A stretch of 64,000 nt of DNA from an archaeon (GCA_043801855.1 JAZDLQ010000017.1:15202-79201); one strand, 5' to 3'. Positions 14,952 to 36,805 are shown, counted from the first letter of the stretch. The notes: generated by a model from the sequence alone, not told the origin. Program-made: numbers and translations.

Positions 14952-15054
14952 GATCTTTTTTGCCTTATTGCATTACTTAAAATAAGCCATGAACTTTCAG
15001 CAAGAGCTATTACAGCAATCTCAATTCCTATGCTTAATATGTTTATCATAACCT

Positions 15055-15135
15055 ATAATACGCAAGCCTGGTTTATAAGGCTGGCGCGGGAATGTCCAGT
15101 GACTAGTGGCCGTGCACTGGACAAGTCCACGTTAG
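15055..15135. ncRNA. candidate structured RNA / GC-rich element (unassigned)
   Basis: Locally GC-rich patch in AT-rich intergenic DNA with hairpins AGCC-N10-GGCT and GTCCAGTG-N13-CACTGGAC. No tRNA cloverleaf could be built. Confidence 0.2.
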
Positions 15136-15181
15136 GTATTTAAAGCATTAACAAGATATATTTTTCAGACAGCAAGGTAAA

Positions 15182-15586
15182 ATGTTAATGGAAGATTCAC
15201 TTTCAATGTTTAAAAATGATGACGTGGCACGAATAGTTGCATTAATTAATAGTGATGGACATTTACAAACAGGAAGAAGAAATCTTATCTCATTTTATTC
15301 AAAAGAATCAGATGAAATAGATTCAGCAAAAAATCTTGTTGAAAAGATATTTAAAATTAATGGAAAGATTTACAAAGACACTCGCGGTAACAGATATAAG
15401 CTTTTTTTTTATTCTAAAGCTGTGCAGATATGCTTATTGAATTGGGTGTTTCGCCTGGCAATAAGACCAATACTTCTTTTTTAGTACTTGACTGGATTTA
15501 TAATGGAAATTCCAATAGGGAACTTTGCAAAAATCATGTTTTATAGCGTGCGCATAGATAATCGAAATTATTAATGCGCACGATAT
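15182..15586 (+). pseudogene. LAGLIDADG-family homing endonuclease relic (single-domain, frameshifted)
   Basis: VALINSDGHL..RRNLISFYSKESDEID..LVEKIFKINGKIYKDTRGNRYKLFFYSK parallels the I-DmoI-type LAGLIDADG domain. The expected continuation ..ADMLIELGVSPGNKTNTSF.. lies in another frame after a T9 run. Confidence 0.4.
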
Positions 15587-15725
15587 ATTGGAGCGCAAAT
15601 AAAAATTTCTACGAATATTACGTGCGCTCCCTATACATGAAGAGCAAAAGCTCTCTCGACGTGAAAAATGTGCTGCAAAGTTATCTATACTCAAAGCGCA
15701 AAAATTGCGCTTTTCCTAATAGCAA
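15545..15725. repeat. three hairpins sharing a GCGC core (GTGCGCAT/ATGCGCAC; GGAGCGCA/TGCGCTCC; AAAGCGCAA/TTGCGCTTT)
   Basis: 8-9-bp perfect inverted repeats within 180 bp, directly after the LAGLIDADG relic. Confidence 0.5.
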
Positions 15726-15904
15726 AGGAATATATCCATTTGCTATATTAGGAGTTTGCAAAGTTTTTTGCAAACTTCTCTATACTCTTTAGCATTGTTT
15801 TCATATAGTTCATACCTTCTTGAATATTTATATTATTGTTTTTTTACTTATTTTCTTTTTTGTCTTACAATTGTCATACAATTATAATACAATATACAAA
15901 AACG

Positions 15905-15920
15905 TAATATTTATATACTA
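15905..15920 (+). promoter_or_regulatory. TTTATATA archaeal TATA-box candidate upstream of the RHH/surface-protein operon
   Basis: Exact TTTATATA at 15910-15917 in a 180-bp AT-rich stretch. Distance to the first ATG is ~70 nt. Confidence 0.3.
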
Positions 15921-15985
15921 CACAGATAATACAAAAATACAATTATTATACTAAAATGATTATCAGTATACTATTTTAGTCAAAA

Positions 15986-16144
15986 ATGGGTCCAAAAGCA
16001 GTAGTTGTAAACATAAGGCTTCCTGATAACATAATCTCCTGGTTGGATTCACTAGTTGAATCAGAGCTTTATAATTCAAGATCTGAAGCAATCAGAGCGT
16101 TCTCACGGGATTATGTTCTTAAAAACAGGGGTGGTGACAGATAG
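15986..16144 (+). CDS. ribbon-helix-helix (CopG/NikR-like) DNA-binding protein, 52 aa
   Basis: VNIRLPDNIISWLDSLVESELYNSRSEAIRAFSRDYV matches the RHH pattern (beta strand, then two helices with an SRSE motif). Below the ORF-track cutoff. Confidence 0.6.
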   Translation: MGPKAVVVNIRLPDNIISWLDSLVESELYNSRSEAIRAFSRDYVLKNRGGDR

Positions 16145-16167
16145 CTGACCAGATAATATCACTAAGA

Positions 16168-16404
16168 ATGCCAAAATCCCTTGTTGAAGAATTAAATAGT
16201 GTTGCAGATAAAAACCATTTTCTTGATATTAGTGAAGAAATCAGGTTTCTTCTTCGTGAAAAATATTTAAGCTATCATGATCCTTATGCATCAGAACTTG
16301 AAAAAATAAGAAATAATTTATCAAAAGTGACTGTTCCGGAAAAAGTTGATGCATTGAAAAAAGACCTGCAAAAGCTATTGGAGGGGCTAAATGACATCAG
16401 GTAG
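16168..16404 (+). CDS. second RHH-like small protein
   Basis: MPKSLVEELNSVADKNHFLDISEEIRFLLREKYL has the RHH N-terminal strand + helix pattern. Its 3' end overlaps the next gene. Confidence 0.45.
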   Translation: MPKSLVEELNSVADKNHFLDISEEIRFLLREKYLSYHDPYASELEKIRNNLSKVTVPEKVDALKKDLQKLLEGLNDIR

Positions 16405-19400
16405 GCTACTATCAAGAATTGTACTTTTAGCACTTTGTATAGCTGCGCTTTTAAATGCAAGCTCTCAGGTTGCGATAATTGATAATAGCACAATCTCAAT
16501 AGATGGTTTTGCATTTAGAAATATTGAAAATCAGGATTATAATGTAGCAAGCGCCGGTTCAATGGCTACGTTCTATGATATGTCTTACTATAATGGCTCA
16601 GGATTTTACCTTGGCGATATTGGAATGGGAACAGATGTTATTTATACCTCTGGATTGAATGCAACCCTTGTTGAAATTTCACTCGTTAAAAAAGAGCCTG
16701 GAAATGTTGATGCGCTACTTGCTTGTGATTATTTTGTTGAAGGATCTTTTGTATGCCAGAATTGGAGTATAGCTGACTTTGACTACGCAGAAAATGAAAC
16801 ACATGTTGTTTTTATAGCAGATTCATTTACTGCGATCGCCGGGCATATTGCTAAGGAGAATAATTTAAAAGAAACATTGCTTGACGTATGGCCGCAAACA
16901 ATTATCGGAAAGCCATATGGTGGAAAGGCCGCATATCCTGGAAATGTGTCTTATATTTATTCGAACTTTACAGATGGAGCATCAGGAGATATATTATCCG
17001 ATGGATTTTGCACAGCAACAGAAACAGTATCTAATTATACAATGATCTACGATTCAGCAAAAAAATTATTCACTTACGCAGTACTATATGATAATCCTGG
17101 AAACTATTCTTTTGGAATTTATTGTTGCAGTGAGGGATATTACTGTTCTAACAAATCAGTAGTCCTTGAAATAAGCCCTCTTATCTCAGCAAACGATACA
17201 CATCTAGACAATGATGGTGACGGGTATTCTTATATCTATGACTGTAATGACAACAACCCGAATATAAATCCCGGAAAAGTTGAAATATTATATAATGGAG
17301 TTGATGATGACTGCAGCAGTGCAACACTTGATTATTTCTTTTTTGATATCAGCACAAATAAGCTGACATATGGATTGGGCGAATCAGTTCAGGTAACAAT
17401 TAGGTCATACAATAATTCCGATGCATATATAACCATTAATTCGCCGTCAAATATTTCTTATGTGTATATATATGCTAATGATACTTATCCTAAAACTCTT
17501 ATTTTTTCACACACAAACAATTCAGGCAATTATTCAATAGAAGGAATTTCTTATTATAATAATTATACCATTTCAAAAGAGATTTCATTTGGCGTTGAAA
17601 ATAATCTTGTAGCCATTGCATCCGCAAACCAGACAGAAGCTTTTAAAAATAATAAGATTGGCTTTTTTGCATCAGCCTCAGGTGGAACCGCACCTTACAC
17701 ATACTCATGGAATTTTGACGACGGAACAGTTGTGTCTGAAAAAGATTTAGTGCATGCATTTAATTCTTCAAAAACTTATAATGTTCTGCTAAGAGTAAAA
17801 GACTACTTCGGAAACCAAAGAACGCAGACACTAACAATTTCTGTAATTGATGAGTATAAGCTTTTAGTGAAAGTAGTTGACAATAATACTAATGCTGCAA
17901 TTAAAAACATTAAAGTGAAGCTTGATAGTGATGCTAAATACACTAATTCAAGCGGGAGCGTTGAATTTAGGGTTGCATTAAAAACATATGATATAAAGCT
18001 ATCTCATGCAAATTACAGCACATACTCGGCTGAAATAAAAATAAATGGAACACATGATAAAGAGTATAGGCTTATAAGAGAAATAACTGGCCTTCCTCCT
18101 CAGATATTTGTCCAGTTGCCTTCTGATAATTCAGAGTATAAAAATAGAGATGTTGAATTTTCTTTCTATGTGATTGATGATACAGATTTAAACTGCACTC
18201 TTTACACTTCTTTTGGAGATTCATGGTGGACAGCTGAAAAAACATTTAGTAATTTAGTTTCTAATAAAGAGGCAAAGCACACTCTTTCTGGGCTAAAAAA
18301 TGGAGAATATTACTGGAAAATTGAATGTATTGATAAAGAAAAAAAGAGTGCAGAAACATCTGAATATAGTTTTACTATAAAAACAGAAGAAAAAAATTCT
18401 ATCGATACAGAGGTGGCTGATATAAACGAAACTTCATCAGCTGTGCAAAGTGTCTATGACCTGCTTCCAGATCTTGATTCTTACACACCTGATCAAAAAA
18501 GAGTGCTTGAATTACTGGATATTTACAATGTACTTGAAGAATCAAAAGTTGAGTTAGACAGGGCAAATAGAGATATGTTTAATCTGCGTTATAGGAAAGA
18601 TTTAATTGATCCAATTGGTGAATCTGAAAAAATAATTCAGCAAATAGCGGCAGTAAAGGATAAGACGCCAAGGTCAGTTACTGTTGAAGATAAGGTTGAA
18701 TTTATTAAATATGTTGATGATAAAGAGGCAGAAGAGTTAATAAATAAATATATTGATTTAAAAAATACACAACTTTCATCAGGAGATAGAAAAAAAATAG
18801 TTGATCAAAACAAGCTGCTCCAAAAAAAGATAACTGTATCCACAGAAAGCTATAATGTGAGAATAGAGTATCTTTCAGGTCGAATTAAAGAACTAACACT
18901 TATTAGCAAAAAATCTGATTACAACAGTGTTACTAATGGGAAATTTGTAGAATTTATTCCTGATGAAATAATAGGCTCTGCAGAATTATCTGTAATTACA
19001 GCATCTCCTGCCATTTTACAGGATGGCAGAATTTTTGAAATACCACAGGATGAAGCGCACACCTTATCTTATTCTATAAATAAAAAGATTTTACTTAGTG
19101 AAATACCAAAAATGAAATCATTACTTATAACGCTCGACGAGCAAAGTGAAATTAAAGAAGGAGGAACAATAACAGGGTTTGCGTTGTTTAATACGCAAGG
19201 CTCAAATAATAAAATTGTATTTTACATCGAAATACTGGTTATTGTAATCCTTGCAGGCATCTATATTTCATATCAATTTAGATATGGCGGAGCCGAAACT
19301 GTGAATGGCGTTCCTGAAACAGCCAAAAGCAAAGAGCCGGTTTCAAGCTATAATTTTTATGGCCAAGGCTTTAAAGCAATTGATAGCGCATCTTCTCTTC

Positions 19401-19723
19401 TTGAGAATGGAAATATTTCGGAATCTTCAATTAAATTTTCAGAAGCAAAATATCTTTTCAACAAAATGTCTGATTACCACAAGTCACTACTCTATCCAAA
19501 AATAATCCACTGTGCAAATAAAATCAATATCAAATACATGCATAGCTTAATTGATGACTGCTATATTAGGATGGCAGAAGGCAATATTGACGGCGCATTA
19601 ATATTATATCAGGAGATTTCAGAGGAATATGCTCTCCTTGATGAAAACTCTATAGAAAAAATTTATCCAAAAATATGCGAGTTAATTGTGGCTCTTGAGA
19701 TAAAAAAATTGAATTGTAATTAA
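16391..19723 (+). CDS. large type-I surface protein: signal peptide, Asp-rich metal-binding-like motif, PKD domain, C-terminal TM helix and ~150-aa cytoplasmic tail
   Basis: Signal peptide LLSRIVLLALCIAALLNASS, GGAGGGG RBS, DNDGDGYSYIYDCNDNNPNINPG..DDDCSS, PKD-like ASASGGTAPYTYSWNFDDGT..H.F...G.YNVLLRVKDYFGN, TM IEILVIVILAGIYISY. Very dense N-x-S/T sequons. Confidence 0.8.
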   Translation: MTSGRLLSRIVLLALCIAALLNASSQVAIIDNSTISIDGFAFRNIENQDYNVASAGSMATFYDMSYYNGSGFYLGDIGMGTDVIYTSGLNATLVEISLVKKEPGNVDALLACDYFVEGSFVCQNWSIADFDYAENETHVVFIADSFTAIAGHIAKENNLKETLLDVWPQTIIGKPYGGKAAYPGNVSYIYSNFTDGASGDILSDGFCTATETVSNYTMIYDSAKKLFTYAVLYDNPGNYSFGIYCCSEGYYCSNKSVVLEISPLISANDTHLDNDGDGYSYIYDCNDNNPNINPGKVEILYNGVDDDCSSATLDYFFFDISTNKLTYGLGESVQVTIRSYNNSDAYITINSPSNISYVYIYANDTYPKTLIFSHTNNSGNYSIEGISYYNNYTISKEISFGVENNLVAIASANQTEAFKNNKIGFFASASGGTAPYTYSWNFDDGTVVSEKDLVHAFNSSKTYNVLLRVKDYFGNQRTQTLTISVIDEYKLLVKVVDNNTNAAIKNIKVKLDSDAKYTNSSGSVEFRVALKTYDIKLSHANYSTYSAEIKINGTHDKEYRLIREITGLPPQIFVQLPSDNSEYKNRDVEFSFYVIDDTDLNCTLYTSFGDSWWTAEKTFSNLVSNKEAKHTLSGLKNGEYYWKIECIDKEKKSAETSEYSFTIKTEEKNSIDTEVADINETSSAVQSVYDLLPDLDSYTPDQKRVLELLDIYNVLEESKVELDRANRDMFNLRYRKDLIDPIGESEKIIQQIAAVKDKTPRSVTVEDKVEFIKYVDDKEAEELINKYIDLKNTQLSSGDRKKIVDQNKLLQKKITVSTESYNVRIEYLSGRIKELTLISKKSDYNSVTNGKFVEFIPDEIIGSAELSVITASPAILQDGRIFEIPQDEAHTLSYSINKKILLSEIPKMKSLLITLDEQSEIKEGGTITGFALFNTQGSNNKIVFYIEILVIVILAGIYISYQFRYGGAETVNGVPETAKSKEPVSSYNFYGQGFKAIDSASSLLENGNISESSIKFSEAKYLFNKMSDYHKSLLYPKIIHCANKINIKYMHSLIDDCYIRMAEGNIDGALILYQEISEEYALLDENSIEKIYPKICELIVALEIKKLNCN

Positions 19724-19724
19724 G

Positions 19725-22700
19725 ATGAAAAATAAGCTAAATAAAAAAAGTATTGACAATCTACTTGAAAAAACACTCATTATTTTAGTTTTATCTATAT
19801 CGTTCATGTCTTTATTGTTCTTCAGGGATTTCATTGGATTTGCTTCCTTCCATGCTGCAAGAGGCGGTCAGATATCAGAAATCAATCTTGCGCAGGAAGA
19901 GCCTGCAGAATATTGGAATGGAATCTATGGCTTAGTTATTATGTTTCCTGCAATCAATAATACATGGTCAGTGCTTACGGAAAATGCTGGAATGAATCAG
20001 CTAGTAATGCTGGTGCCATGCCTGCTTGGAGGCCAAGAAAACGAGCTATATGCTGCGAATGTAACATCAGAACAAATAGAATGGGAAAATGTTGTTGCTG
20101 CGGATGCTGAAATCGTTGATGAATACCTTCAGATAAATTCTGGATCACTTATATCAGCAAATAAGACGTTTACAGATACTATGACTATTGAACTTGGTAC
20201 CAGAACAATTTATGATATCCCTATGGTTCACACTTACCAGCGTGATGATCATAACAGCGAAGTGTTTTCGCATGGTGTCTTAACAGATGGAGAGCACATA
20301 ATATTAGTTGCAAAAGTAACAGAAGGATATCCTATGGGATTTGATGGAAACCTTTACAATTACCAGATGTTTGTGCCTGTTCCTTTAAACAGGACAGTCA
20401 GATATTATATATTGACGGATCCATATGACACCTGTCCGGCAGGAGAAGATGTAGGATTAGGAACCGGATATGTATCTGGCTGGGTGACAGACAACTCAAC
20501 TGGGCTTCCGATTGAGAATGCAGAAGTATTTGTCGGAAAAAGTAGTGCTGTTAGTGATGAAGATGGATACTATAATTTTTCTGTCACAGAAGGCACATAT
20601 AAAATAATAGGAATAAAATATGGCTATAACAATTATATAAGTAATATTACTGTCTATTACAGCAATTATACTGAGCATAATATATCAATGACATTATATC
20701 AGGAGCCGCTTACAGGGATAGGTTCAGGTGTCGGTACTGGAGTTGGCCCTGGTCAAACCGACAAGACAAGGACAGGTGTCGGCCCAGGAGTTGGTCCAGG
20801 AGTTGGTCCAAATATCGGACCATATCTAGAAAAACCAGAGCTAATGGGCATAGATCATTTTATTACTCTTGACAAAATTGATAAAAAAATAAGATTGGAC
20901 AATTTCTTTACAGAGACTGTTTTTCTCTATAGTTTTAGGAAAGAAAATGCACTTGTCCAAATAAGGCTTAATGGAAATGTAACAGAAATTGTCGAGATAG
21001 ACAAAGAATCTGTAACAATTGAGCCAAATGGCGTTGCAAATGTGACTGTCACAGGATTCGGAAAAGAGATTGGTGAATATATTGGATCTCTTGACTTTGG
21101 CGGTGATTTTAACGACAGCCTTCCGATTAAAATTAGAGTAACAGATGAAGATAAGCTTCCAGTTGAAGCGCTTCTTATGGAGCTTGAGCTATTGACGCCT
21201 CATCCATATGCTGGTGATTTATACAAATTTAAGCTCAATCTTCATAACATGCTTATTGAAGAAAGGTATAACATTTCTCTCAAATATAAAATCCAAGGTA
21301 TTGAGGCAAGGACATCAAATTATTCAATGGAATTAGAACCAGAAAGTGTTGCAATCTTAACAACAGTATCTCTAATTAAGCAATTTAACATACCGAAAAA
21401 TTGGCCGAAAGGAGAATACCTTCTTGACATTGAGGCCGAGTATCTGGATCTTTATTCAAAAACATCAACTGTTTTTAATGTATATGAGCCTATTTATATG
21501 TATAAGCTTTTTGGAGTTCTTGAGTTATGGAAATTGTTTTTAGGAATTCTTTGCCTTGCAATAATTGTATTTGGTGTGATATTTATTAGGAGGCATATTG
21601 AATCGAAAAAGAGATTCCATGGAAAAGTCGAATATAAATTGCTCCCAAAAAAAGGGCCAAGGTCATTGTATATCGGAAAAATAGCTGAAACTGAAAATGA
21701 TACTTACATGGATATGGATGTATTAACAGTTCACTCAATAATTGCTGGTTCAACAGGCGGCGGTAAATCCATTTCCGGTCAGGATATAGTAGAAGAATGC
21801 CTGCTGAAAAATGTTGCAGTGATAGTTTTTGATCCTACAGCTCAGTGGAGCGGAATGCTCCGAAAATGCTCCGACAAAAAGATGATGGAATTTTATCCAA
21901 GATTTAATATGACGCCAAAAAGCGCAAGAGCTTTTTCCGGCAACATCAGAGCAATTAAAGACCCAAGAGAAAAAGTTGACCTGATGAAATACCTTAAGCC
22001 TGGAGAAATTCAGATATTTACAATGAGCACCCTTGACCCAAAAGGAATTGACATTTTTGTTGCAAATACCGTGAGGGCAATTTTCCAGTCAAACCTTCAG
22101 GAATATAGGGGGCTTAGATATATGATGGTTTACGATGAAGTCCACAGGCTTCTTCCTAAATTTGGCGGAAGTGGCGAAGGCTTCATCCAGATCGAAAGAG
22201 CATGCAGGGAATTCAGAAAATGGGGAATAGGTGTAGTTCTTATTTCCCAAGTCCTGGCGGATTTCGTAGGTCAAATCAAAGCTAACATTAACACAGAAAT
22301 CCAGATGAAAACAAGAGATGAAGGAGATCTTGCAAGAATCGAAACTAAGTATGGAAAAGAATTTTTACAGGGATTAGTAAAGGCGCCAGTTGGTTCAGGA
22401 ATGCTGCAAAATTCGGCATGGAATAGAGGTAAACCGTATTATGTCACATTCAGGCCGATCATGCACAGCGTAACAAGATTGACAGATGAGGAGCTATCAT
22501 TGTACAATAAATATAATGAGATGGTTGATGACTTATCTTACCAGATAGACCAGCTTGAAAAAGAAGAATTAGATGTTTTTGATTTGAGGCTAGAATTAAA
22601 GTTATCTCTTGATAAGATAAAAACTGGAAGTTTTAACATGGTTGATATTTATCTGGAAGGCTTAAAGCCTAGGCTTGAAAAAATGTGGAAGGATCTTGGA

Positions 22701-23555
22701 AAAAAACCTAAAAAAAGAACTTTAGAACTTGTGTCTGAAGATGATATAAAGGCAGATATTGCAGCAGCTCAAAAATCAAGAGAGCAATATGAAAAAGAAA
22801 AAGGGCCCTCTGCCGGAGGAGAAGAAAAAAAAGGCCCTGCATCATTAGGGTTTAATGACGAAGTTCCTCCTGATAAGCTCCTTAACCTCTCAAACGGAAT
22901 GATTGTAATAAGTATGAAAGGGCTTTATGATGAGCTTGTTCCGATGAAAGATTCAGATTATAAAAATGAAGTAAATGAAAACAAGAACACTTTTGCAAAC
23001 TGGATCAGAACAGCATTAAATAGTCCAAAGCTTGCTGATATCGCTGATAATATTATTGCAAAAGAAGATTATCTTGCATTTTTCGATTCAATAAAAGCAG
23101 GAACAGGTGAAAAATTCAAGCCAAAAGCGCCAAGGCCACCAAAGGAGGCAGCAGCACCAGTAGCAGGCTCAGCACCAGTGGCAGCAGCGACACAAGCAGC
23201 ATCTATTGCACCAGTTTATCCTGCAATAGTTCAACCTGTTGCTCAGCCTTCGGTACAAAATTTGCAAGAACAGTCTACGCAGGCAAATGCGTCTTCAGGG
23301 CAATCAGGAGTTGCTCCTCTTGAATTATTCGACGGTACCAGAATTAATAGTTTAAAAGATTTGTTTGAAGCATTGTCAAAAATAGATGATGATACATTTA
23401 TGCTCTACGTTAATGAAGGAAACAATGAATTTGCAGAATGGATAAGAACAAGCCTTAAAGATGAGGCTTTTGCAAATGAAATTTCATCGCTAAAAACAAG
23501 AGAAGAGCTGAAGAAAAAAGTAGAAGAGAAATTAAAAGTCTTAAAAGTTGGTTAA
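19725..23555 (+). CDS. membrane-anchored HerA/FtsK-superfamily (DUF87-like) ATPase with ~600-aa extracellular N-terminal domain and two C-terminal copies of the novel docking domain
   Basis: N-terminal TM. CarboxypepD_reg-like beta-sandwich (GWVTDNSTGLPIENAEVFV..DGYYNF). Elastin-like GVGPG repeats. Second TM LGILCLAIIVFGVIFI. Walker A AGSTGGGKS, Walker B MVYDEVHRLLP, RKWGIGVVLISQ and NTEIQMKTRDEGD motifs typical of HerA/DUF87. Pro/Ala-rich linker. Confidence 0.8.
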   Translation: MKNKLNKKSIDNLLEKTLIILVLSISFMSLLFFRDFIGFASFHAARGGQISEINLAQEEPAEYWNGIYGLVIMFPAINNTWSVLTENAGMNQLVMLVPCLLGGQENELYAANVTSEQIEWENVVAADAEIVDEYLQINSGSLISANKTFTDTMTIELGTRTIYDIPMVHTYQRDDHNSEVFSHGVLTDGEHIILVAKVTEGYPMGFDGNLYNYQMFVPVPLNRTVRYYILTDPYDTCPAGEDVGLGTGYVSGWVTDNSTGLPIENAEVFVGKSSAVSDEDGYYNFSVTEGTYKIIGIKYGYNNYISNITVYYSNYTEHNISMTLYQEPLTGIGSGVGTGVGPGQTDKTRTGVGPGVGPGVGPNIGPYLEKPELMGIDHFITLDKIDKKIRLDNFFTETVFLYSFRKENALVQIRLNGNVTEIVEIDKESVTIEPNGVANVTVTGFGKEIGEYIGSLDFGGDFNDSLPIKIRVTDEDKLPVEALLMELELLTPHPYAGDLYKFKLNLHNMLIEERYNISLKYKIQGIEARTSNYSMELEPESVAILTTVSLIKQFNIPKNWPKGEYLLDIEAEYLDLYSKTSTVFNVYEPIYMYKLFGVLELWKLFLGILCLAIIVFGVIFIRRHIESKKRFHGKVEYKLLPKKGPRSLYIGKIAETENDTYMDMDVLTVHSIIAGSTGGGKSISGQDIVEECLLKNVAVIVFDPTAQWSGMLRKCSDKKMMEFYPRFNMTPKSARAFSGNIRAIKDPREKVDLMKYLKPGEIQIFTMSTLDPKGIDIFVANTVRAIFQSNLQEYRGLRYMMVYDEVHRLLPKFGGSGEGFIQIERACREFRKWGIGVVLISQVLADFVGQIKANINTEIQMKTRDEGDLARIETKYGKEFLQGLVKAPVGSGMLQNSAWNRGKPYYVTFRPIMHSVTRLTDEELSLYNKYNEMVDDLSYQIDQLEKEELDVFDLRLELKLSLDKIKTGSFNMVDIYLEGLKPRLEKMWKDLGKKPKKRTLELVSEDDIKADIAAAQKSREQYEKEKGPSAGGEEKKGPASLGFNDEVPPDKLLNLSNGMIVISMKGLYDELVPMKDSDYKNEVNENKNTFANWIRTALNSPKLADIADNIIAKEDYLAFFDSIKAGTGEKFKPKAPRPPKEAAAPVAGSAPVAAATQAASIAPVYPAIVQPVAQPSVQNLQEQSTQANASSGQSGVAPLELFDGTRINSLKDLFEALSKIDDDTFMLYVNEGNNEFAEWIRTSLKDEAFANEISSLKTREELKKKVEEKLKVLKVG
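20722..20820 (+). repeat. elastin-like (G)VGPG tandem repeats encoded in the ATPase gene
   Basis: GVGTGVGPGQ...GVGPGVGPGVGP at the nucleotide level is GGTGTCGG/GGAGTTGG repeated. Confidence 0.6.
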
Positions 23556-23557
23556 AT

Positions 23558-23779
23558 ATGGTAAATGAACTGATTAAAATTTTTGAAAACAGACGCAGTA
23601 ATTTAGTGAAGTTGCTTGACAATGCAAGGGATGATATGGATGCAGGCAAGCAACATCAGCTCTATGGCGCAATACTGGAGATTGACAATGTGCTTGAGGC
23701 AATGCAGGATTTGCACTGTAAAAATATTTCAAAAAAATTATGTGATCGAAAAGATAACTTATTGAGGCTTAAATGCTGA
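23558..23779 (+). CDS. small helical protein
   Basis: 73 aa, 3 nt after the previous stop. No motif. Confidence 0.4.
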   Translation: MVNELIKIFENRRSNLVKLLDNARDDMDAGKQHQLYGAILEIDNVLEAMQDLHCKNISKKLCDRKDNLLRLKC

Positions 23780-23780
23780 T

Positions 23781-24590
23781 ATGGAAGAAGAAATACCTCC
23801 TGAAAAGTATTTTTATGTACATGATGGAACAATAATAAGATGTATTGATGAGCTTCCGATATACCTTACGAGTATGGATGAGCAGATATTTGTATTCCAT
23901 GTAACTGAAGAAAAAAATGACTTTGCATCCTGGATAATGGGTGTTTTTAACGAATCATTGCTTGCCGAAAAAGTACAAAATTCCAAAACAAAAGACGAAA
24001 TGATTAATATAATAGGAGAATACATGGAAAGCAAAATTGTCCTCTCTGTTAATAATTATAACTCTATCAATGCAGATCAGCCAGCGCAGCAGATACATTC
24101 TTCTTTAGAAAAATATGAAAAAGAAATTTCTGAGCACGGCAATGAAGAACTAAATGGTTTGAAATCTGAGGAGTTAACGGCAATCGACTCGCTAAATCTT
24201 TCAAAAGAGGCTCTGGAAATAAATTCATTAACTACAAATCAAGAACCTGAAAAAATTAAGAAACAAGAAGATCAAAAAACAATATTGAATCAAAATGATA
24301 CAAAAGATAATTACATATATACCTACAAAAGAGGAGAAAAAAATCAAAATAGCATAATTTCAAAAGCATTTTTTTTTCATTATGATGAGTTAAAAAAGAA
24401 AATTTCTGAAAAAAGAAAAAAGGGATATGATACTAGCCATTGCAATTTGTTAATTATGCAAATTCCTTCAAAAATCAAGCTGCTTGAACACTTTTTTTCT
24501 GAAAAAGAGTCGCTGAAGCTCATACACTTATTTTATATTATTAATGAAGAATTAAATATACTTACTAAAAAGGAGATGGTGTTGGCGTGA
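23781..24590 (+). CDS. soluble protein with N-terminal docking domain (F.FHV..EKNDFASWI)
   Basis: N-terminal 75 aa align to the C-termini of the 1276-aa and 1493-aa proteins. The C-terminal LIHLFYIINEELN is shared with the next ORF. Confidence 0.6.
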   Translation: MEEEIPPEKYFYVHDGTIIRCIDELPIYLTSMDEQIFVFHVTEEKNDFASWIMGVFNESLLAEKVQNSKTKDEMINIIGEYMESKIVLSVNNYNSINADQPAQQIHSSLEKYEKEISEHGNEELNGLKSEELTAIDSLNLSKEALEINSLTTNQEPEKIKKQEDQKTILNQNDTKDNYIYTYKRGEKNQNSIISKAFFFHYDELKKKISEKRKKGYDTSHCNLLIMQIPSKIKLLEHFFSEKESLKLIHLFYIINEELNILTKKEMVLA

Positions 24591-25279
24591 AACAAAATAA
24601 GACAAAAACAATTCAAAAAATTGATAAAAATAAAGGTAATAAGGAGTTTATTACGTGCACTGGCCAGAAAATAAAAACACTTATGAGCCTTCCGATTGCG
24701 CTTCGTACAATGGATGACATGTGTTTTTCAGCGCACGTGAATGAAAACAAAAATGATTTTGCAGAATGGGTCATTAATGAAATTGGACAAAAGAACTTAG
24801 GAGAAAGAATGCAAGAGCATAAAGATAAGGCATCGCTCCTTAAATTCCTAGTTGATTACCTTGCAGACAAAACCTTAATTCAGGAAGAACTGCAAAATGG
24901 TAGCATGGCTAATGAAAAAATACCTGTTGGCTTTTTTCAAAATTTAATCTATAAGATAAAAAAGACTCTTCATCTAAAGCAAATTGTTAAACCCAATTTA
25001 AGCGAAGCCATACGTGGAAGGCTTTTTATTAGTAAAGTTAAAGATATATCTGATTTGGAAGTAATATTTAGCGAGTCGCTTGAGGAATACAGGTGGAAAG
25101 TATATAGCTTAAAAAGCCGTGGCGAGAACACACAGGAGTGCCAGCTTTATCTTGGAACAACAGAGATGAAGATTAGAGAATTTGGCCAATATGTAAATGA
25201 AAAAAATGCAATAGATATCCTTCATTTATTCTATTGTCTGGATGATGAAATAAAAAAGCATGAAAATTCCAAGACCTAG
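24587..25279 (+). CDS. paralog of the previous ORF (docking-domain protein)
   Basis: ALRTMDDMCFSAHVNENKNDFAEWVINEIG at the N-terminus and ILHLFYCLDDEIK at the C-terminus. 4-nt start/stop overlap with the upstream gene. Confidence 0.6.
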   Translation: MKQNKTKTIQKIDKNKGNKEFITCTGQKIKTLMSLPIALRTMDDMCFSAHVNENKNDFAEWVINEIGQKNLGERMQEHKDKASLLKFLVDYLADKTLIQEELQNGSMANEKIPVGFFQNLIYKIKKTLHLKQIVKPNLSEAIRGRLFISKVKDISDLEVIFSESLEEYRWKVYSLKSRGENTQECQLYLGTTEMKIREFGQYVNEKNAIDILHLFYCLDDEIKKHENSKT

Positions 25280-25348
25280 ATTTATAAACTAGATTAAAAT
25301 ATCAAGATATCACAGCAATACTTGTAATTATTAAAAAAGAGGTTGAAT

Positions 25349-26449
25349 ATGTGGCCGTTTAAGCCAAAATTTGCAAGAATAGAAGACCAGCAGGAAAAAA
25401 AAGAGGATGAGTCAGCGGTAGCTGCGCCTAGCAATGATGATTTTCAAGGGAAATCTTCTGATTCTATGCTTGGCGCTGAAATTATGAAATTAAAAGCGCA
25501 GTTTGACCAATTTTCAGAGCTTCGAAAAGTATTTAATGAACGCTTTACAAGAATAAACGAGCAGATTGGGGAACTTCGTGGAATGATAATGGATACTAAT
25601 CGTTCCATGCAGGATGTAGAAGTAAAAACTGTAAAAGCAGTTGACTTGGTAAGCGCAGTTCAGCCAGATAAGCTAATGGTTGAAGTAAAAAAGCAGGATG
25701 CAAAAATTGAGGCACTCAAAGCTAATATAGAAAGTAACGAAGCTATTATGAAATCAATTCTTGACCAGCTAAAAGATATGAGAATACAAGTGTCAAAATT
25801 CAGAGGAGTTGACCAGATTGTTTCTTTATCTGAAGATGTAAAAAAAGAGCTGATGAACATCAAAAAAGTAGAGGCAACTCTTGAGCGACACTCTGATAAG
25901 GTTGAAGGAATATTTATGGAATCACAAAAACGGTTCCAGGATTTTGAGAGAGTTGTAAACAAGCAGGCGGACTTTGACAAGCAGGTGAAAGCAATTCAAG
26001 AGCAGTCTGATCAGCTTAAAATTAAGATTCCCGTTTTTTCAACAAAAAAGGAGATGGAAGATCTTCAGGGTAAATACAATGAATTTGAAAAACACACTGC
26101 AAATGTAATTGATCTTGTTACAAAAAGAGCAAATGATCTTCCTGTCGAGATAAACGACAGATTTGCTCGCTTTGAAAAAAATATAAACAGTGCATTTGAA
26201 AAAAAGATAAGAAAAACAGATGAAACAAATAAATTGATTTCAGAAATTGAAAAAAAAGCACAGAAAATTGCCAAAGAATTAAAACTTCACCAGGCAACCA
26301 CTGAAAAAAAAGAGGAAGGAGCGTCTCTAATAAATTCAGATATGCCAAAAGCTGAAAATAAGGATGAAGCTCCATCAAAAGAGGCAACTGAAAAAAAAGC
26401 AAGATTCTTAGAAGGGCTGTTTAAGAAAAAAGAGAAAGAAAAGAAATAA
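25349..26449 (+). CDS. coiled-coil protein
   Basis: ~366 aa dominated by heptad-like K/E-rich segments. The listed ORF starts at TTG 25343, but ATG 25349 (MWPFKPK) with an upstream GAGG is more likely. Confidence 0.5.
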   Translation: MWPFKPKFARIEDQQEKKEDESAVAAPSNDDFQGKSSDSMLGAEIMKLKAQFDQFSELRKVFNERFTRINEQIGELRGMIMDTNRSMQDVEVKTVKAVDLVSAVQPDKLMVEVKKQDAKIEALKANIESNEAIMKSILDQLKDMRIQVSKFRGVDQIVSLSEDVKKELMNIKKVEATLERHSDKVEGIFMESQKRFQDFERVVNKQADFDKQVKAIQEQSDQLKIKIPVFSTKKEMEDLQGKYNEFEKHTANVIDLVTKRANDLPVEINDRFARFEKNINSAFEKKIRKTDETNKLISEIEKKAQKIAKELKLHQATTEKKEEGASLINSDMPKAENKDEAPSKEATEKKARFLEGLFKKKEKEKK

Positions 26450-26483
26450 TTAATTTGTGAACTTTTTTGCTTTTTGAAGTTCA

Positions 26484-28337
26484 TTAGCGTAAATCAATAG
26501 GAGTAATAGTCTCTTTTTTGAATTTCTCTTTGGCTTCTGCCAGCCTTTTTCGCTGCTGCATTAGGTGCTCATGGAAAATAATTGGGACATCTTGCTCATC
26601 AGCATATATTTTTTCTATTCGCAGTAGCCTGTCCAAAAGCTTTTCAGTTCTGATTGAAAAGAGCTTAACATAGTCTTCTTTTGAGAAATCTCTGTTAAAA
26701 GTTTTTCTGAATAATAATTGCAAATCATCGTACTTAGGAATAAATCCAATTGGTGTTTCAATTGCATCATATTCGTTGTGAATTCTTCCTTCCATCCACA
26801 AAAGCCACACCTTTTTATCAACTTTTTGATTCAAGAATTTTCCGTTTTCCTTAAGGAAATAATTGGTTGCAAAGATTTTAGGAGTTTCATCAAGTATTTC
26901 TCCAAACTTTAAGTGATTATTGATGTAAGTTCCTAGCGGAATAACTAAAAAATCCATATTTGCCATTGGGTCATGAACTCTTACTCCTTCCTGGCCTATT
27001 TTTGCTGATGTTGTCTCTGATTCAAGAGCACTACCGATAAATACGCCATGCGACCAGCTAAGTGATTCAATTACAGGCGGACTAGTATCTGAATCCCTTC
27101 CACCATAAATAATTCCTGAGACAGGAACTCCTTTCTTATTGTGAAGATTAGGATCTGCATTTTCAAGTTCATTAATCCTAATTGTATATCTTGCATTTTT
27201 ATGTGCTGGAAGTATCTCTTTTCCATCATGTCCCATCTTTCCCTCACTCCACTCGCCTGAAAAATTTTCTCCATTAGCTGGAAGCTCTTGCCCCATTCCA
27301 AGCCAATAAGGGTTTCCATTTTTTACCAGTATATTAGACATGATAAGTTCTCTTTTTGTTGTAAGGGCCTTATGGATGACTGGATCATCAATAGGATTTA
27401 TATCCTGAATTATTCCAAAAATTCCCTGTTCAACATTTGCAGCATAGCACAGGCCGTCTTCTCCTGCCCGGAGATATGAAATATCATCACCTATAATTGA
27501 TTGGCCAGGAACCATTGCAGTAGATGTTTTCCCGCATGCGCTTGGGAACGCTCCAGTAAAATAAGTAACTCTTTCTTTTCCAGGAGGATGCACTCCCATC
27601 ACAAACATGTGCTCGCAAAGCCAGCCTTCCCTATTTGCTTTACTGATCGCAAGCCTTAGCGCAAGCTTTTTTAGCCCTACACTGTTGCCTGCATATTGAT
27701 TGTTTATTGTAAAAACTCTTTCTTCTTCTAGATCCATATAGATTCTTCTTTTGTCAACATCTATTGAATTATTATTTGAAGTAAGTTTTCCAGCTGAATG
27801 GATAAAATGAAAAAATTTATCCGTTCCATTTAAGTTGACAAATTCATCATATCCTTTCCGATAAAGTATAGATTCGCTGTGTGCAACATATGCAGAATCA
27901 GTTATCTGCAGTGCAGGAATTGAAAATATTGATTCGTTTGGCCCAAGGCAAAAAAAGCACACGAGCATTTCTTTTCCTTCCATTATTCCATCCAGGAGAT
28001 TAAGTATTTCATCTAATCCATCATCCCTGTCAATTGTATTAATAGATTTTGAAAGCATCTTTCCCTTTGGAAGGAGAATTTTTGTATTTTGTGCATCCCT
28101 GCCCTGATCAAAATAACCATCAAAATGAATCGTGTGGCCAGAAATATTAAGAGGCTTCTCCTCACAATTTTTTAACGAAAGCGTTCTAATGTATTCAAGA
28201 TCCTCGTCTGATCCGCTAAGCACAGTAATTTTTCTCGGTCTGCATAGCTTTGCATATTTTTCAATTATTGAATCCACATGTGAATTATTTAATTTAGCAA
28301 GCTTTTTAGCGCTGTTTTTATCCATTAACTCATTCAT
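26484..28337 (-). CDS. pckG: phosphoenolpyruvate carboxykinase (GTP)
   Basis: Kinase-1a signature FPSACGKTSTAM, 617 aa, and a GIIYGGRDSDTSPPV C-terminal nucleotide-binding region typical of GTP-PEPCK. Confidence 0.85.
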   Translation of the reverse strand: MNELMDKNSAKKLAKLNNSHVDSIIEKYAKLCRPRKITVLSGSDEDLEYIRTLSLKNCEEKPLNISGHTIHFDGYFDQGRDAQNTKILLPKGKMLSKSINTIDRDDGLDEILNLLDGIMEGKEMLVCFFCLGPNESIFSIPALQITDSAYVAHSESILYRKGYDEFVNLNGTDKFFHFIHSAGKLTSNNNSIDVDKRRIYMDLEEERVFTINNQYAGNSVGLKKLALRLAISKANREGWLCEHMFVMGVHPPGKERVTYFTGAFPSACGKTSTAMVPGQSIIGDDISYLRAGEDGLCYAANVEQGIFGIIQDINPIDDPVIHKALTTKRELIMSNILVKNGNPYWLGMGQELPANGENFSGEWSEGKMGHDGKEILPAHKNARYTIRINELENADPNLHNKKGVPVSGIIYGGRDSDTSPPVIESLSWSHGVFIGSALESETTSAKIGQEGVRVHDPMANMDFLVIPLGTYINNHLKFGEILDETPKIFATNYFLKENGKFLNQKVDKKVWLLWMEGRIHNEYDAIETPIGFIPKYDDLQLLFRKTFNRDFSKEDYVKLFSIRTEKLLDRLLRIEKIYADEQDVPIIFHEHLMQQRKRLAEAKEKFKKETITPIDLR

Positions 28338-29851: not shown

Positions 29852-30022
29852 ATGAGAAAGCCAAAACCAAAAAAGACAAGATTATGGCTCTATGTAGATG
29901 AGAAAATCCTTTCGTGGGTATATGAAAAAATGGAAAAAAAAGAGTATTCAGATGAGTCGCACTGCTTTGAGCGGCTTGTCATGGAAAAAATGAATTCAGA
30001 AGAAGTAAATGGAGCTAAGTAA
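29852..30022 (+). CDS. small protein (56 aa) upstream of the KaiC-like gene
   Basis: MRKPKPKKTRLWLYVDEKILSWVYEKMEKK... A basic N-terminus plus helix may indicate a small regulator. Below the ORF-track cutoff. Confidence 0.3.
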   Translation: MRKPKPKKTRLWLYVDEKILSWVYEKMEKKEYSDESHCFERLVMEKMNSEEVNGAK

Positions 30023-36804: not shown

Positions 36805-36805
36805 G

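Follow-up and report, generated by a model that had tools for sequence, protein, structure and literature searches.

What does an archaeon do with a compact gene cluster that encodes a membrane ATPase beside a large surface protein, two small ribbon-helix-helix (RHH) proteins, paralogous docking-domain proteins and a coiled-coil protein? A sequence-only reading had taken the cluster for one functional system, a candidate novel surface or secretion module under local RHH control. Here we analysed the cluster at 15,986-26,449 of a 64,000-nt archaeal stretch (the window; all positions are counted from its first letter) together with its relatives in other genomes.

Layout and boundaries of the cluster

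The eight co-directional genes that had been described are all present where they had been placed, on the + strand, preceded by a promoter region:

15860-15975, +: promoter and putative operator region, [A/T]TACAA direct repeats around a TATA box
15986-16144, +: P1, 52 aa
16168-16404, +: P2 as given in the ORF list, 78 aa from ATG 16168
16141-16404, +: P2 extended, 87 aa from ATA 16141; RHH domain, then a C-terminal helix
16391-19723, +: P3, predicted type-I surface glycoprotein, 1110 aa
19725-23555, +: P4, predicted surface-tethered HerA-clade ATPase, 1276 aa
23558-23779, +: P5, 73 aa
23781-24590, +: P6, 269 aa; N-terminal OrfY-like domain (aa 1-88), linker, C-terminal domain common with P7
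24587-25279, +: P7, P6 paralog, 230 aa; GTG start with Shine-Dalgarno sequence GGAGATGGTG; OrfY-like domain at aa 13-99
25281-25348, +: P7-P8 spacer; TATA-like TTTATAAA at 25281-25288, GAGGT Shine-Dalgarno sequence 7 nt before ATG 25349
25349-26449, +: P8, 366 aa from ATG; in-frame TTG at 25343

P2 and P3 overlap by 14 nt and P6 and P7 by 4 nt, while 1, 2 and 1 nt separate P3 from P4, P4 from P5 and P5 from P6, so that the five junctions specified earlier (16391/16404, 19723/19725, 23555/23558, 23779/23781 and 24587/24590) are all correct. The claimed gap range of -14 to +23 nt holds for these junctions but not for P7-P8, where the gap is 63-69 nt (69 nt from ATG 25349), nor for P1-P2, which most likely overlap. 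As for internal promoters or terminators that might split the cluster, its core proved intact, with P1 to P7 joined by overlaps or gaps of 1-2 nt. Inspection of the spacer sequence left P8 as the only gene inside the cluster with a plausible promoter of its own, and the P7-P8 spacer is a possible candidate for it; T6 and T5 tracts follow the P8 stop codon (26465-26478). Neither a scan for sigma-70 promoters (49 found, 49 expected) nor one for hairpin terminators (8 found, 6.3 expected) gave any enrichment, and both are uninformative for an archaeon. The cluster and the rest of the window do not differ in GC content.

Conservation of the module in relatives

At least 586 stretches of species genomes contain a match to the P4 ATPase family, and the co-localisation check proposed earlier could be run on such relatives. 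A P3 homolog stands immediately upstream of the ATPase in 49 of the 58 loci with enough sequence, and homologs of P1 (42-76% identical), P2 and P3 together, the first two upstream of the third, directly precede the ATPase in 45 of the 58 informative loci. P8 was found within 4 kb downstream of the ATPase in 53/58, and P4 and P8 are the minimal conserved pair. This order is held although the flanking genes, which are housekeeping genes around our cluster, differ between relatives. On this comparative evidence, the cluster represents a conserved module that many Woesearchaeota-type DPANN genomes share. The genomes are all MAGs, several of them wrongly taxon-labelled, and a host-associated lifestyle is therefore assumed for them.

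The RHH proteins and their putative operator

P1 is an RHH protein by its Pfam RHH_1 match (E 4.2e-4, 20.6 bits against a cut-off of 20.5), with weak matches to NikR, CdrS and the ParD N-domain. For P2, the start is most likely ATA 16141 and not ATG 16168: the RHH beta-strand IADQIISLR is encoded upstream of this ATG, P2 homologs begin with M, V or L at the position aligned to the ATA, and the codons between the two starts show five synonymous and two conservative changes between the window and relative L001. Moreover, an SD-like GGTGGTGA precedes ATA 16141, while inspection found nothing SD-like before ATG 16168. Starting at the ATA, P2 would overlap the P1 stop codon TAG as ATAG, so that the 23-nt gap between the two genes would really be an overlap. 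The extended P2 reaches 16.8 bits (E 0.0065) against RHH_1, below the cut-off. Profile comparison of the two families (hhalign probability 96%, E 2.9e-9, 46 columns) shows that P1 and P2 are paralogous RHH proteins, as their earlier description as a tandem pair had it.

The region upstream of P1 contains the TATA box TTTATATA at 15910-15917, the box noticed in the sequence-only reading. Four [A/T]TACAA repeats precede it, at 15865, 15876, 15887 and 15894, in 11-nt steps except for a last step of 7 nt, and two more lie beyond it at 15929 and 15937. Nowhere else in the window is the motif as dense, with six copies in 100 nt here against three in the next-best place. Across 53 loci, ATACA is 8.5-fold enriched upstream of P1 (13.6/kb against a background of 1.6/kb), nearly always in a single orientation, and the distances between copies peak at 11 (44 pairs), 22 (16) and 33 (6). 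The leader also carries a conserved GTATAC palindrome at 15966-15971, and the promoters of relatives keep AAACATTTATATACTAC and YAGTATAC blocks. These features fit RHH autoregulation through a putative operator, and the conserved array with its 11-bp spacing around the TATA box, which the proposed operator search brought out, supports the local RHH control suggested before. The RHH autoregulators CopG, Arc, MetJ and omega are likewise small and encoded first in their operons, with short direct repeats that cover the core promoter at a spacing of one helical turn. Unlike them, the present locus has two paralogous RHH genes in tandem, whose products may form a heterodimer, P2 has an additional C-terminal helix, and the promoter is archaeal, with a TATA box.

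P3, a predicted surface glycoprotein with a variable distal part

P3 opens with a signal/anchor segment (aa 6-30) and a variable distal part (aa about 30-230), followed by a MopE-like motif (aa 284-311), a PKD domain (aa 416-485; PKD_4, E 1.6e-10), a CarboxypepD_reg domain (aa 493-552), which is the only domain it shares with P4, and a conserved stalk. A TM segment at aa 942-960 (nt 19214-19270) leads into a conserved helical cytoplasmic tail (aa 961-1110); TPR repeats were ruled out for this tail (hhalign probability 2%). Identity to 60 homologs is only 3-14% for aa 1-250 against about 25-30% for aa 250-950. The ectodomain has 25 N-glycosylation sequons, and the predicted ectodomains of P3 and P4 carry 2.5-2.8 sequons per 100 aa, compared with about 0.6 in the cytoplasmic parts. 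Hydrophobic segments, sequon distribution and the PKD_4 match all agree with the 1110-aa type-I surface protein with PKD that had been proposed.

P4, a predicted surface-tethered ATPase of the HerA clade

P4 consists of a short N-terminal cytoplasmic stub, TM1 (aa 19-37), an ectodomain (aa 38-602), TM2 (aa 603-621; nt 21531-21587) and, beginning about 20 aa further on, an ATPase domain at aa about 640-1000 (nt 21642-22724), behind which lie two OrfY-like domains at aa 1042-1129 (nt 22848-23111) and aa 1192-1275 (nt 23298-23549). The ectodomain of 565 aa is conserved and sequon-rich, hence predicted to be glycosylated, and contains a CarboxypepD_reg domain (aa 250-323) and a GVGPG linker. The ATPase matches DUF87/HerA (E 3.2e-9, 37.7 bits against a cut-off of 23.2) as well as HerA_C, and a profile search against solved structures returned HerA-type proteins only (10 chains, best E 1.8e-7). 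Walker A (AGSTGGGKS, aa 674-682) and Walker B (VYDEVH, aa 802-807) are both present, and GSTGGGKS and VYDEVH, with G675, G678, G680, K681, D804 and H807, are invariant in 16 homologs. Identity to homologs is 56-88% for the ATPase (50-aa blocks up to 88%) and 27-43% for the ectodomain. By its profiles and motifs, P4 belongs to the HerA clade of the FtsK-HerA superfamily with an intact P-loop motor, and the HerA match together with the two TM segments bears out its earlier description as a HerA-like membrane ATPase.

A phmmer search against 1.84 billion representatives yielded 979 relatives. Among the best 146 new ones, 49 reach 2000 aa or more, with a maximum of 6253 aa, and in every case the ATPase is near the C-terminus; in the giants this domain is 45-60% identical to that of P4. 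In 133 of 137 family representatives, no more than 70 aa separate the ATPase from a TM segment upstream of it. Weak ResIII/DEAD matches in P4 relatives echo, in an only suggestive way, the helicase-like match reported for SPEARE proteins (PMC10266531).

OrfY-like adaptors and the coiled-coil protein P8

P5 is a helical protein conserved in close relatives only, with homologs of 34-48% identity at the same position in L001, L009, L010, L011 and L021; family searches gave no match above threshold for it. P6 and P7, which align over 254 aa at 24% identity (E 5e-13), are paralogs, as had been noted for the two docking-domain proteins, and the docking domain can now be refined to an OrfY/DUF5752 half-repeat (domain HMM E 3.4e-38 for P7). 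It is common to P4, P6, P7 and the tail of a 1493-aa surface protein described below, and has the repeat fold, modelled as a single chain, and the NDF-x-x-W signature of OrfY/DUF5752. OrfY of Thermoproteus tenax (PDB 4CSO; Pfam DUF5752) stands alone, with two repeats in a protein of about 216 aa, and nothing is established about its function beyond the depositors' label of 4CSO, "transcription factor". In the proteins described here, the domains do not form a stand-alone tandem of about 200 aa; instead, the repeats occur singly, as extensions of an ATPase, of soluble proteins and of the tail of a surface protein, and a low-complexity linker of about 60 aa separates the two copies in P4. P6 is a candidate cytoplasmic adaptor.

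P8, previously read as a 366-aa coiled-coil protein, was indeed modelled by single-chain structure prediction as three long helices (aa 37-101, 106-230 and 234-324). Its N-terminus is aromatic-basic (MWPFKPK; MxxFKKK in the family) and its C-terminus is an amphipathic tail of K-G-L-F-x-K-L-F type. ESCRT-III and PspA were considered for P8, and neither sequence profiles nor fold searches, which covered solved structures, gave specific similarity to them.

A linked second module and a giant surface-protein gene

Further large surface proteins are encoded downstream in the window:

29852-35450, +: linked second module, comprising a 56-aa protein and the two genes below
30046-30915, +: KaiC-like ATPase (Pfam KaiC, E 2.7e-50)
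30969-35450, +: predicted 1493-aa bitopic surface protein, TM segments at aa 10-28 and 1141-1159
48768-64000, +: giant surface-protein gene, >5077 aa, running off the window, 22 kb downstream of the module

An OrfY-like domain (nt 35190-35429; domain HMM E 2.3e-20) forms the end of the cytoplasmic tail in the 1493-aa protein, and the trio of 56-aa, KaiC-like and 1493-aa proteins also lies within 10 kb downstream of this module in L001, L019 and L056. The giant protein has a signal peptide, four LamG/ConA-like lectin domains, a DUF2341 domain and 3.1 sequons per 100 aa. Homologs of its gene (E < 1e-10) were found downstream of P8 on the same strand in 28 non-duplicate loci. Of the 45 loci whose sequence extends at least 8 kb downstream, 31 have a same-strand ORF of 700 aa or more within about 8 kb after the ATPase. 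As judged from these loci, relatives usually have a giant lectin-domain surface gene after the module. Moreover, 12 of 26 ATPase-less giant ORFs (25 from the loci and the window's own) share ectodomain segments with the ATPase-fused giants.

Discussion

SPEARE proteins of Nanohaloarchaeota consist of a signal peptide, an Ig-rich ectodomain, a TM segment, a VirB4/TraG-like ATPase and a coiled coil, and have been proposed to act on host cells, their function being itself a proposal (Reva et al. 2023, PMC10266531). P4, likewise from a DPANN archaeon, has the same architecture, with an N-terminal signal/anchor, an extracellular Ig-like/beta-sandwich region, a TM segment, a cytoplasmic ATPase of the FtsK-HerA superfamily and a C-terminal helical part, an arrangement also seen in the 133 of 137 family representatives above; its comparison with the named SPEARE proteins (Ca. 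Nanohaloarchaeum antarcticus, SVXNc_0300, BNXNv_0298) covered their published description. The giant relatives of 2000-6253 aa that end in a P4-like ATPase follow the SPEARE plan, and L005 and L008 have a second ATPase gene adjoining the main one, a feature also reported for SPEARE loci. Unlike SPEARE proteins, which have thousands of residues and tens of Ig-like repeats, P4 is of moderate size, and the large adhesin-like parts are separate genes, namely P3 and the LamG protein. In addition, P4 scores best as HerA, whereas the SPEARE ATPase was called VirB4/TraG-like by its authors (PMC10266531), and the two RHH regulators with their conserved putative operator, the OrfY-like adaptors and the coiled-coil P8 have not been described for SPEARE loci. 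Of the "novel surface or secretion module", the surface or secretion part is consistent with the topology and the ATPase family, while "novel" has to be tempered because the ectodomain-TM-ATPase-coiled-coil plan has been described for SPEARE (PMC10266531).

We propose that the repeats would be bound by P1 and P2, which would repress or modulate the transcription of genes P1 to P7. HerA/FtsK ATPases hexamerise, and a P4 hexamer would have six ectodomain arms and a total of 12 TM helices, in association with P3. P6 and P7 may dock on the ATPase tail through pairing of single OrfY repeats, with P8 as a membrane-associated scaffold beneath the complex. ATP hydrolysis would then power either the passage of a macromolecule (DNA or protein) through the membrane or mechanical work on the surface structure, at sites where P3 and the associated giant lectin-domain protein make contact. 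Giant ectodomain and motor are encoded by separate neighbouring genes in what is otherwise the SPEARE blueprint. Against this reading stand the lack of a secretion component among the profile matches of the cluster proteins and, in the window, the distance of 22 kb to the giant gene, which is not adjacent. That the cluster is an RHH-autoregulated envelope module built in this way around a surface-tethered HerA-clade ATPase, and works by this mechanism, is in our judgement about evenly balanced. Its predicted function is that of an RHH-autoregulated envelope machine, probably a translocase serving host interaction.

To our knowledge, the characterised membrane-anchored members of the FtsK-HerA superfamily (FtsK/SpoIIIE, VirD4/TrwB, VirB4, EssC/EccC and CedB) all move DNA or protein across membranes. 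We tentatively suggest that the module may be a "split SPEARE", an uncharacterised archaeal trans-envelope translocation system with which Woesearchaeota-type DPANN cells move protein or DNA to or from a host. VirD4/TrwB, VirB4 and EssC/EccC share with P4 the superfamily, the membrane anchoring by two N-terminal TM segments per protomer and the cytoplasmic motor; the loop between the TM segments is 565 aa in P4 against a few tens in these type IV/VII ATPases. P4 scores sub-threshold against TraC (17.9 bits, cut-off 567), TraD (17.1, cut-off 366) and VirB4_plasma (15.1, cut-off 590), and its paralogs weakly match TrwB_AAD_bind and T4SS-DNA_transf. Profile searches of the cluster proteins revealed no VirB6/8/9/10 or relaxase of type IV secretion. 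As regards type VII secretion, P4 has a single ATPase domain and neither a FtsK_SpoIIIE match nor the multi-domain arrangement of EssC, and the small proteins P2 and P5 gave no WXG100 match.

Alternatively, the ATPase may anchor, assemble or tension P3 and the giant lectin-domain protein, or signal surface binding inward, with no passage through a pore. Large, conserved ectodomains with predicted glycosylation, the variable distal tip of P3, as in receptor-binding proteins, and the linkage of giant adhesin-like genes to the module all speak for such maintenance of a surface structure or adhesin, as does the OrfY-like domain on the tail of another surface protein, which suggests a shared cytoplasmic tether. 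Profile searches also found in the cluster no substrate or WXG100-type cargo, no relaxase, no polytopic protein that could form a channel and no further secretion component. However, no characterised FtsK-HerA ATPase is known as a pure maintenance machine, and the very high conservation of the motor with its intact catalytic motifs points to real mechanochemical work. We regard the maintenance-only reading as unlikely.

A machine for DNA import or export like crenarchaeal Ced/Ted or FtsK/SpoIIIE, supplying a metabolically reduced archaeon with nucleotides or genes, seems distinctly unlikely to us. The closest structural relatives of the motor are DNA-translocating HerA helicases, and since the depositors of 4CSO call OrfY a transcription factor, the C-terminal domains of P4 could bind DNA, like FtsK gamma; yet an OrfY-like domain on a surface-protein tail would be odd for a DNA reader. 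A weak NCBIfam match of P4 to the DNA-translocating ATPase CedD (E 1.3e-5) also speaks for such a machine, but it scores 24.1 bits against a cut-off of 600, and the cluster has no CedA-type polytopic membrane protein and no nuclease or competence genes, while its two RHH proteins are well accounted for as autoregulators by the operator array. P4 has the P-loop core in common with the HerA helicases that act with NurA in resection and with defence-associated HerA, but unlike these it is membrane-inserted with a large ectodomain, and profile searches detected no HAS-barrel N-domain and no NurA, Mre11 or Rad50 partner in the eight proteins.

That P4 is a membrane-anchored FtsK analogue and P8 a division-site coiled-coil scaffold in a device for cell division or chromosome segregation is, in our estimate, quite improbable. 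An anti-virus defence system or a conjugative or viral mobile element with a HerA-like ATPase and RHH genes is largely refuted: the ATPase is matched by the PADLOC models HerA (E 3e-15) and mad8 (E 4e-13), DndB and AbiEii genes occur close to one relative and RHH genes are common on archaeal mobile elements, but the PADLOC matches are confined to the generic ATPase core, profile searches of the cluster found no effector partner (Sir2, nuclease or DUF4297), integrase or relaxase, no relatives were found among 2.9 million viral contigs, and housekeeping flanks, window-like GC and a gene order kept across many species all argue against it.

As far as we know, attachment to and exchange with the host is a central open question for DPANN archaea, for which the giant SPEARE proteins of Nanohaloarchaeota are the sole molecular candidates so far. 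The module described here would carry the SPEARE blueprint into Woesearchaeota-type archaea, with ATPase relatives in the many genome stretches noted above, and would split it into tractable pieces, namely a 1276-aa motor, a partner whose tip varies, a set of small adaptors, a scaffold and a regulator-operator pair. The contact partners of the motor, the ligand of the OrfY-like domain, the movement of DNA versus protein and the switching of expression thereby become testable, and families annotated only as DUF87, DUF5752 or hypothetical gain a context. If the tentative translocation reading is true, the "split SPEARE" would be a DPANN functional counterpart of type IV/VII secretion built on a HerA-clade motor, in which adhesin, motor, adaptors and coiled-coil scaffold are separate, co-regulated genes.

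Layout and conserved order of the gene cluster

The eight co-directional ORFs that a sequence-only reading had joined into one compact operon, a candidate surface or secretion module under local RHH control, were all recovered at the positions assigned to them (15986-26449, + strand):

P1, P2: RHH proteins
P3: surface protein
P4: HerA-like membrane ATPase
P5: 73-aa protein
P6, P7: docking-domain paralogs
P8: coiled-coil protein

The domain labels of that reading are backed by Pfam matches (RHH_1 in P1, PKD_4 in P3, DUF87/HerA in P4), and the upstream box it had reported, TTTATATA, lies at 15910-15917. Its description of the junctions was right for the overlaps (14 nt and 4 nt) and for the three gaps between them (+1, +2 and +1 nt), but the P7-P8 spacer is 69 nt and the start of P2 had been misplaced. 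In this spacer TTTATAAA stands immediately 3' of the P7 stop and GAGGT lies 7 nt upstream of the ATG at 25349, which suggests that P8 may also be driven by a promoter of its own. The module is flanked by housekeeping genes (ThiI, a metallo-beta-lactamase-fold protein, PEPCK and an aminotransferase), and GC content is even throughout the window. Rfam matches were absent from 14900-27000 at E up to 0.1, and a scan for bacterial-type promoters and terminators, whose models are uninformative for an archaeon, gave no enrichment. A LAGLIDADG-like remnant (LAGLIDADG_3, E 6.7e-4) at 15182-15560, just upstream of the module promoter, seems to run on in another frame; it probably derives from a homing-endonuclease gene that has decayed.

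P8 and P6 are 100% identical to the 'hypothetical' proteins V1859_01670 and V1859_01660, respectively. The closest P4 homologs (61-69% identity) belong to Woesearchaeota and Nanoarchaeota MAGs, where their sole name is 'DUF87 domain-containing protein'. When one genome per species was scanned, at least 586 stretches proved to encode a P4 relative, and the 80 loci retrieved came nearly all from Woesearchaeota, Pacearchaeota or Nanoarchaeota MAGs. Many module-bearing MAGs (those of loci L009, L014, L018, L048 and others) are titled 'uncultured Methanosarcinales archaeon' and one 'Candidatus Saccharibacteria bacterium'; these titles probably reflect binning or labelling errors and name the wrong taxa.

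Conservation of gene order, named by the sequence-only reading as a check on its operon, was found when P1-P8 were compared with the ORFs in all six frames of 83 non-duplicate loci. Of 58 loci with 4 kb or more of sequence upstream, 49 have a P3 homolog on the same strand immediately 5' of the ATPase, and 45 have P1, P2 and P3 complete; a P8 homolog follows within 4 kb (median gap 760 nt) in 53 of the 58 loci whose downstream sequence is long enough. Since the genes bordering the module vary between loci, its members are kept together by selection rather than by recent common descent. P5 is restricted to close relatives, and a Pacearchaeota-type subset lacks P1-P3 within 10 kb yet retains P4 and P8, which marks these two as the minimal core. 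Some genomes carry two modules or tandem ATPases, as at L005 (7854-15142) and L008 (1651-6681 and 12372-16681), where ATPases stand in tandem (710 aa, 1713 aa) or two separate modules share one contig. These tandem and expanded ATPases look like a graded series towards giant forms. In the 1970-aa relative P0012, the ectodomain is enlarged by up to nine CarboxypepD_reg repeats.

P4 is a HerA-clade motor tethered to an ectodomain

P4 matches DUF87/HerA (E 3.2e-9), CarboxypepD_reg and, over a short stretch, DUF5752 in Pfam. Its topology, deduced like that of P3 from hydrophobicity and N-glycosylation sequon density, has TM1 at aa 19-37 and TM2 at aa 603-621, with a 565-aa ectodomain bearing 14 sequons between them and the ATPase on the cytoplasmic side after TM2. 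No variation was seen among 16 diverse homologs in the Walker A (GSTGGGKS) and Walker B (VYDEVH) residues, and over 76 homologs identity is 56-88% in the ATPase part and 27-43% in the ectodomain. A profile search of the ATPase part against all solved structures gave only HerA-type matches (best E 1.8e-7), NCBIfam and PADLOC also point to HerA, and the matches of P4 to TraC, TraD, VirB4 and CedD all fall far under the family cut-offs. On these sequence comparisons, P4 is best classed as a HerA-clade motor in an unusual membrane-inserted setting. Neither a HAS barrel, nor a NurA partner, nor an effector partner was found with it.

Exhaustive phmmer with P4 aa 625-1040 against 1.84 billion representatives returned 979 relatives of the ATPase, 370 of them at E up to 1e-30. 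Among the 146 best new representatives, in which the ATPase (45-60% identical to that of P4) is always near the C-terminus, 49 reach at least 2000 aa and 18 at least 4000 aa, the longest having 6253 aa; one 4862-aa giant carries DUF87 at residues 4288-4412. In 133 of 137 representatives the ATPase is preceded, at a distance of no more than 70 aa, by a hydrophobic helix. The family is defined by an ectodomain of any length, then a TM and a HerA-like ATPase, and P4 is a short-ectodomain member of it.

P3 combines a variable distal part with a conserved base

P3 contains PKD_4 (E 1.6e-10), a MopE-like motif and CarboxypepD_reg (Pfam), and runs from a signal/anchor (aa 6-30) through an ectodomain of ~910 aa, in which 25 sequons occur, to a TM (aa 942-960) that is followed by a cytoplasmic tail of 150 aa. 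Its aa ~1-230 (16391-17080) are essentially unconserved, at 3-14% identity, and the stalk, TM and tail show ~21-30%, a pattern in keeping with a conserved base that carries a variable distal part for binding. The unconserved N-terminal part could be a binding surface under diversifying selection. Two further candidates were rejected: a TPR identity for the cytoplasmic tail (hhalign probability 2%) and a wider homology between the P3 and P4 ectodomains, which have the CarboxypepD_reg domain alone in common.

P1 and P2 probably control their own promoter

P1 matches RHH_1 at 20.6 bits against a Pfam cut-off of 20.5. The P1 and P2 families, each well conserved, align with each other in profile comparison (96% probability, E 2.9e-9), which identifies P2 as another RHH domain, with a C-terminal helix after it. 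The codons for the RHH beta-strand of P2 (IADQIISLR) lie 5' of its listed ATG at 16168. Most P2 homologs have ATG, GTG or TTG at the exact aligned position, usually overlapping the P1 stop codon; the window (16141-16143), L001 and L009 have ATA there, which overlaps the P1 stop TAG as ATAG. Over the nine codons upstream of ATG 16168, a comparison of the window with L001 shows five changes that are synonymous and two that are conservative, indicating that these codons are translated. Moreover, GGTGGTGA precedes ATA 16141, nothing Shine-Dalgarno-like precedes ATG 16168, and P2 extended to the ATA matches RHH_1 at E 0.0065. P2 thus appears to start at the non-canonical ATA 16141-16143. Alternatives to such a start are termination-reinitiation or a -1 shift fusing P1 and P2.

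An operator search upstream of P1, likewise named as a check in the sequence-only reading, yielded an array of [A/T]TACAA boxes that is conserved in relatives:

15865, 15876, 15887 and 15894, upstream of P1: [A/T]TACAA boxes, followed by the TATA box
15929 and 15937, upstream of P1: further [A/T]TACAA boxes

This cluster is the densest of its kind in the 64 kb, and the aligned promoters of relatives have the same layout: three or four boxes precede a conserved AAACATTTATATACTAC block, which is followed by two further boxes and a conserved YAGTATAC. Over 53 loci, the 230 nt 5' of P1 contain 13.6 ATACA per kb, as against 1.6 per kb elsewhere; the motif there nearly always has the same orientation, and the distances between pairs show sharp maxima at 11 nt (44 pairs), 22 nt (16) and 33 nt (6). 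RHH repressors act on tandem sites that cover the core promoter at intervals of one helical turn, and such sites at the P1 promoter make autoregulation by P1 and P2 a well-supported inference. Given the conserved operator array, a role of the RHH proteins as relaxosome-like DNA-handling accessories is less likely than autoregulation. The YAGTATAC block (palindrome GTATAC) lies in the P1 leader at 15964-15971, ~50-60 nt 3' of the TATA box, and is kept in most close relatives; it may be a second operator, a transcription-start context or an RNA element.

P4, P6 and P7 share an OrfY-like domain

An HMM of the ~85-aa domain, built on an alignment from P4 homologs, matches the P4 tail twice, the N-termini of P6 and P7, and the C-terminus of a 1493-aa ORF (30969-35450); a search for P6 homologs returned P6 alone, the database-size E-value swamping an 85-aa domain. 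P6 and P7 show the same short DUF5752 match as P4, below the Pfam threshold. The 'docking domain' is a single OrfY repeat, half of Pfam DUF5752. OrfY itself, labelled a transcription factor by its depositors, is a tandem of two repeats, so docking by pairing of single repeats is a reasonable inference. Literature searches for OrfY with Thermoproteus tenax and for DUF5752 found no paper on OrfY. The domain occurs in only 22 of 146 family representatives, which indicates that it is specific to the P4 subfamily; many P4 homologs have TPR repeats in place of the second copy. P6 and P7 also have a C-terminal domain in common, which recurs in an ATPase-adjoining gene of 25 other distinct loci.

P8 gave only coiled-coil noise in Pfam and nothing significant by sequence against solved structures. 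Its 596 homologs bear no specific functional name, being labelled 'hypothetical' or generically. The family consensus has an aromatic-basic N-terminus (MxxFKKK), highly conserved core motifs (e.g. GELRGM, FEKH) and a KKGxFxKLF-type amphipathic C-terminal tail, and an AlphaFold2 model with search-derived homologs consists of three long helices (pLDDT 71). P8 is regarded here as a putative membrane-associated coiled-coil scaffold, assigned to no family.

Giant surface genes and a second trio near the module

Of 45 loci whose downstream sequence extends for 8 kb or more, 31 have an ORF of at least 700 aa on the same strand within ~8 kb after the ATPase; most of these ORFs exceed 1400 aa and leave the retrieved flank. 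In the window, a giant gene lies on the same strand 22 kb downstream of the module:

48768 to beyond 64000 (window end), + strand: giant ORF of >5077 aa with a signal peptide, four LamG/ConA-like lectin domains, DUF2341 and ~3 sequons per 100 aa

Homologs of this ORF lie directly downstream of the module in 28 non-duplicate other loci. The giant neighbours in L003 and L007 (4873 and 4002 aa) contain no DUF87, so the ATPase is missing from both. Among 26 ATPase-less giant ORFs (25 from the loci and the window's own), 12 have ectodomain segments in common with ATPase-fused giants, which points weakly to a fusion-type ('Rosetta stone') link. In favour of the window's own ORF being an ATPase-bearing giant there was a single weak domain-level hit, and its C-terminus is outside the window.

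In L001, L019 and L056, a second trio lies within 10 kb of the module, namely a small protein, a KaiC-like ATPase and the bitopic protein with the OrfY-like tail. The same three genes open a co-directional cluster of the window (29852-42020), where they encode a 56-aa RHH-like protein, the KaiC-like ATPase and a bitopic surface protein of 1493 aa with the OrfY-like domain at its C-terminus; the other members of the cluster are proteins of 457 and 152 aa, a HAMP histidine kinase, a response regulator and a PAS/GAF protein.

Proposed function and relation to SPEARE

The module is a co-oriented, conserved gene set with paralogous RHH proteins, an operator-like array, bitopic glycoproteins, an intact motor tethered to an ectodomain, an OrfY-like domain, a coiled-coil partner and linkage to giant genes. 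Characterized membrane-anchored FtsK-HerA ATPases (FtsK/SpoIIIE, VirD4, VirB4, EssC, CedB) move DNA or protein, and by this analogy the module may be a translocase. P1 and P2 would regulate their own expression through RHH binding at the operator-like array, P4 would form a hexamer with a 12-helix TM bundle and, with P3, a surface complex, P6 and P7 would dock through pairing of OrfY repeats, and P8 would serve as a scaffold. ATP would then power the movement of a macromolecule, or mechanical work, where the cell touches another one. The main rivals to the translocase reading are a machine that anchors adhesins without translocation, one that imports DNA, and a device for division or segregation. 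A defence system or mobile element is largely excluded, and a viral or mobile origin was rejected, as 2.9 million viral contigs contained no relative and the flanks of the module are housekeeping genes.

The module families are annotated solely as DUF87, DUF5752 or hypothetical. In the literature searched (on DUF5752, OrfY of Thermoproteus tenax, DUF87 in Woesearchaeota and FtsK/HerA in DPANN) the module is nowhere described, and the only related work is the papers on SPEARE, giant surface proteins with an ATPase described in Nanohaloarchaeota. SPEARE proteins combine a Sec signal, ~75 Ig-like domains, a TM, a 'VirB4/TraG-like' ATPase and, at the end, a coiled coil; another ATPase gene adjoins theirs. 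They were proposed to bind hosts and serve as secretion channels (PMC10266531); another group proposed roles in host recognition and invasion (bioRxiv 10.1101/2023.02.24.529834). Judged by the published description of their architecture, they have the same plan of ectodomain, TM and ATPase as the P4 family. Because this surface-tethered ATPase plan in DPANN archaea is already published for SPEARE, we rate the module as a variant of it and not as a wholly new one; what would be new is a multi-gene, putatively RHH-controlled, short-ectodomain version with new accessory families.
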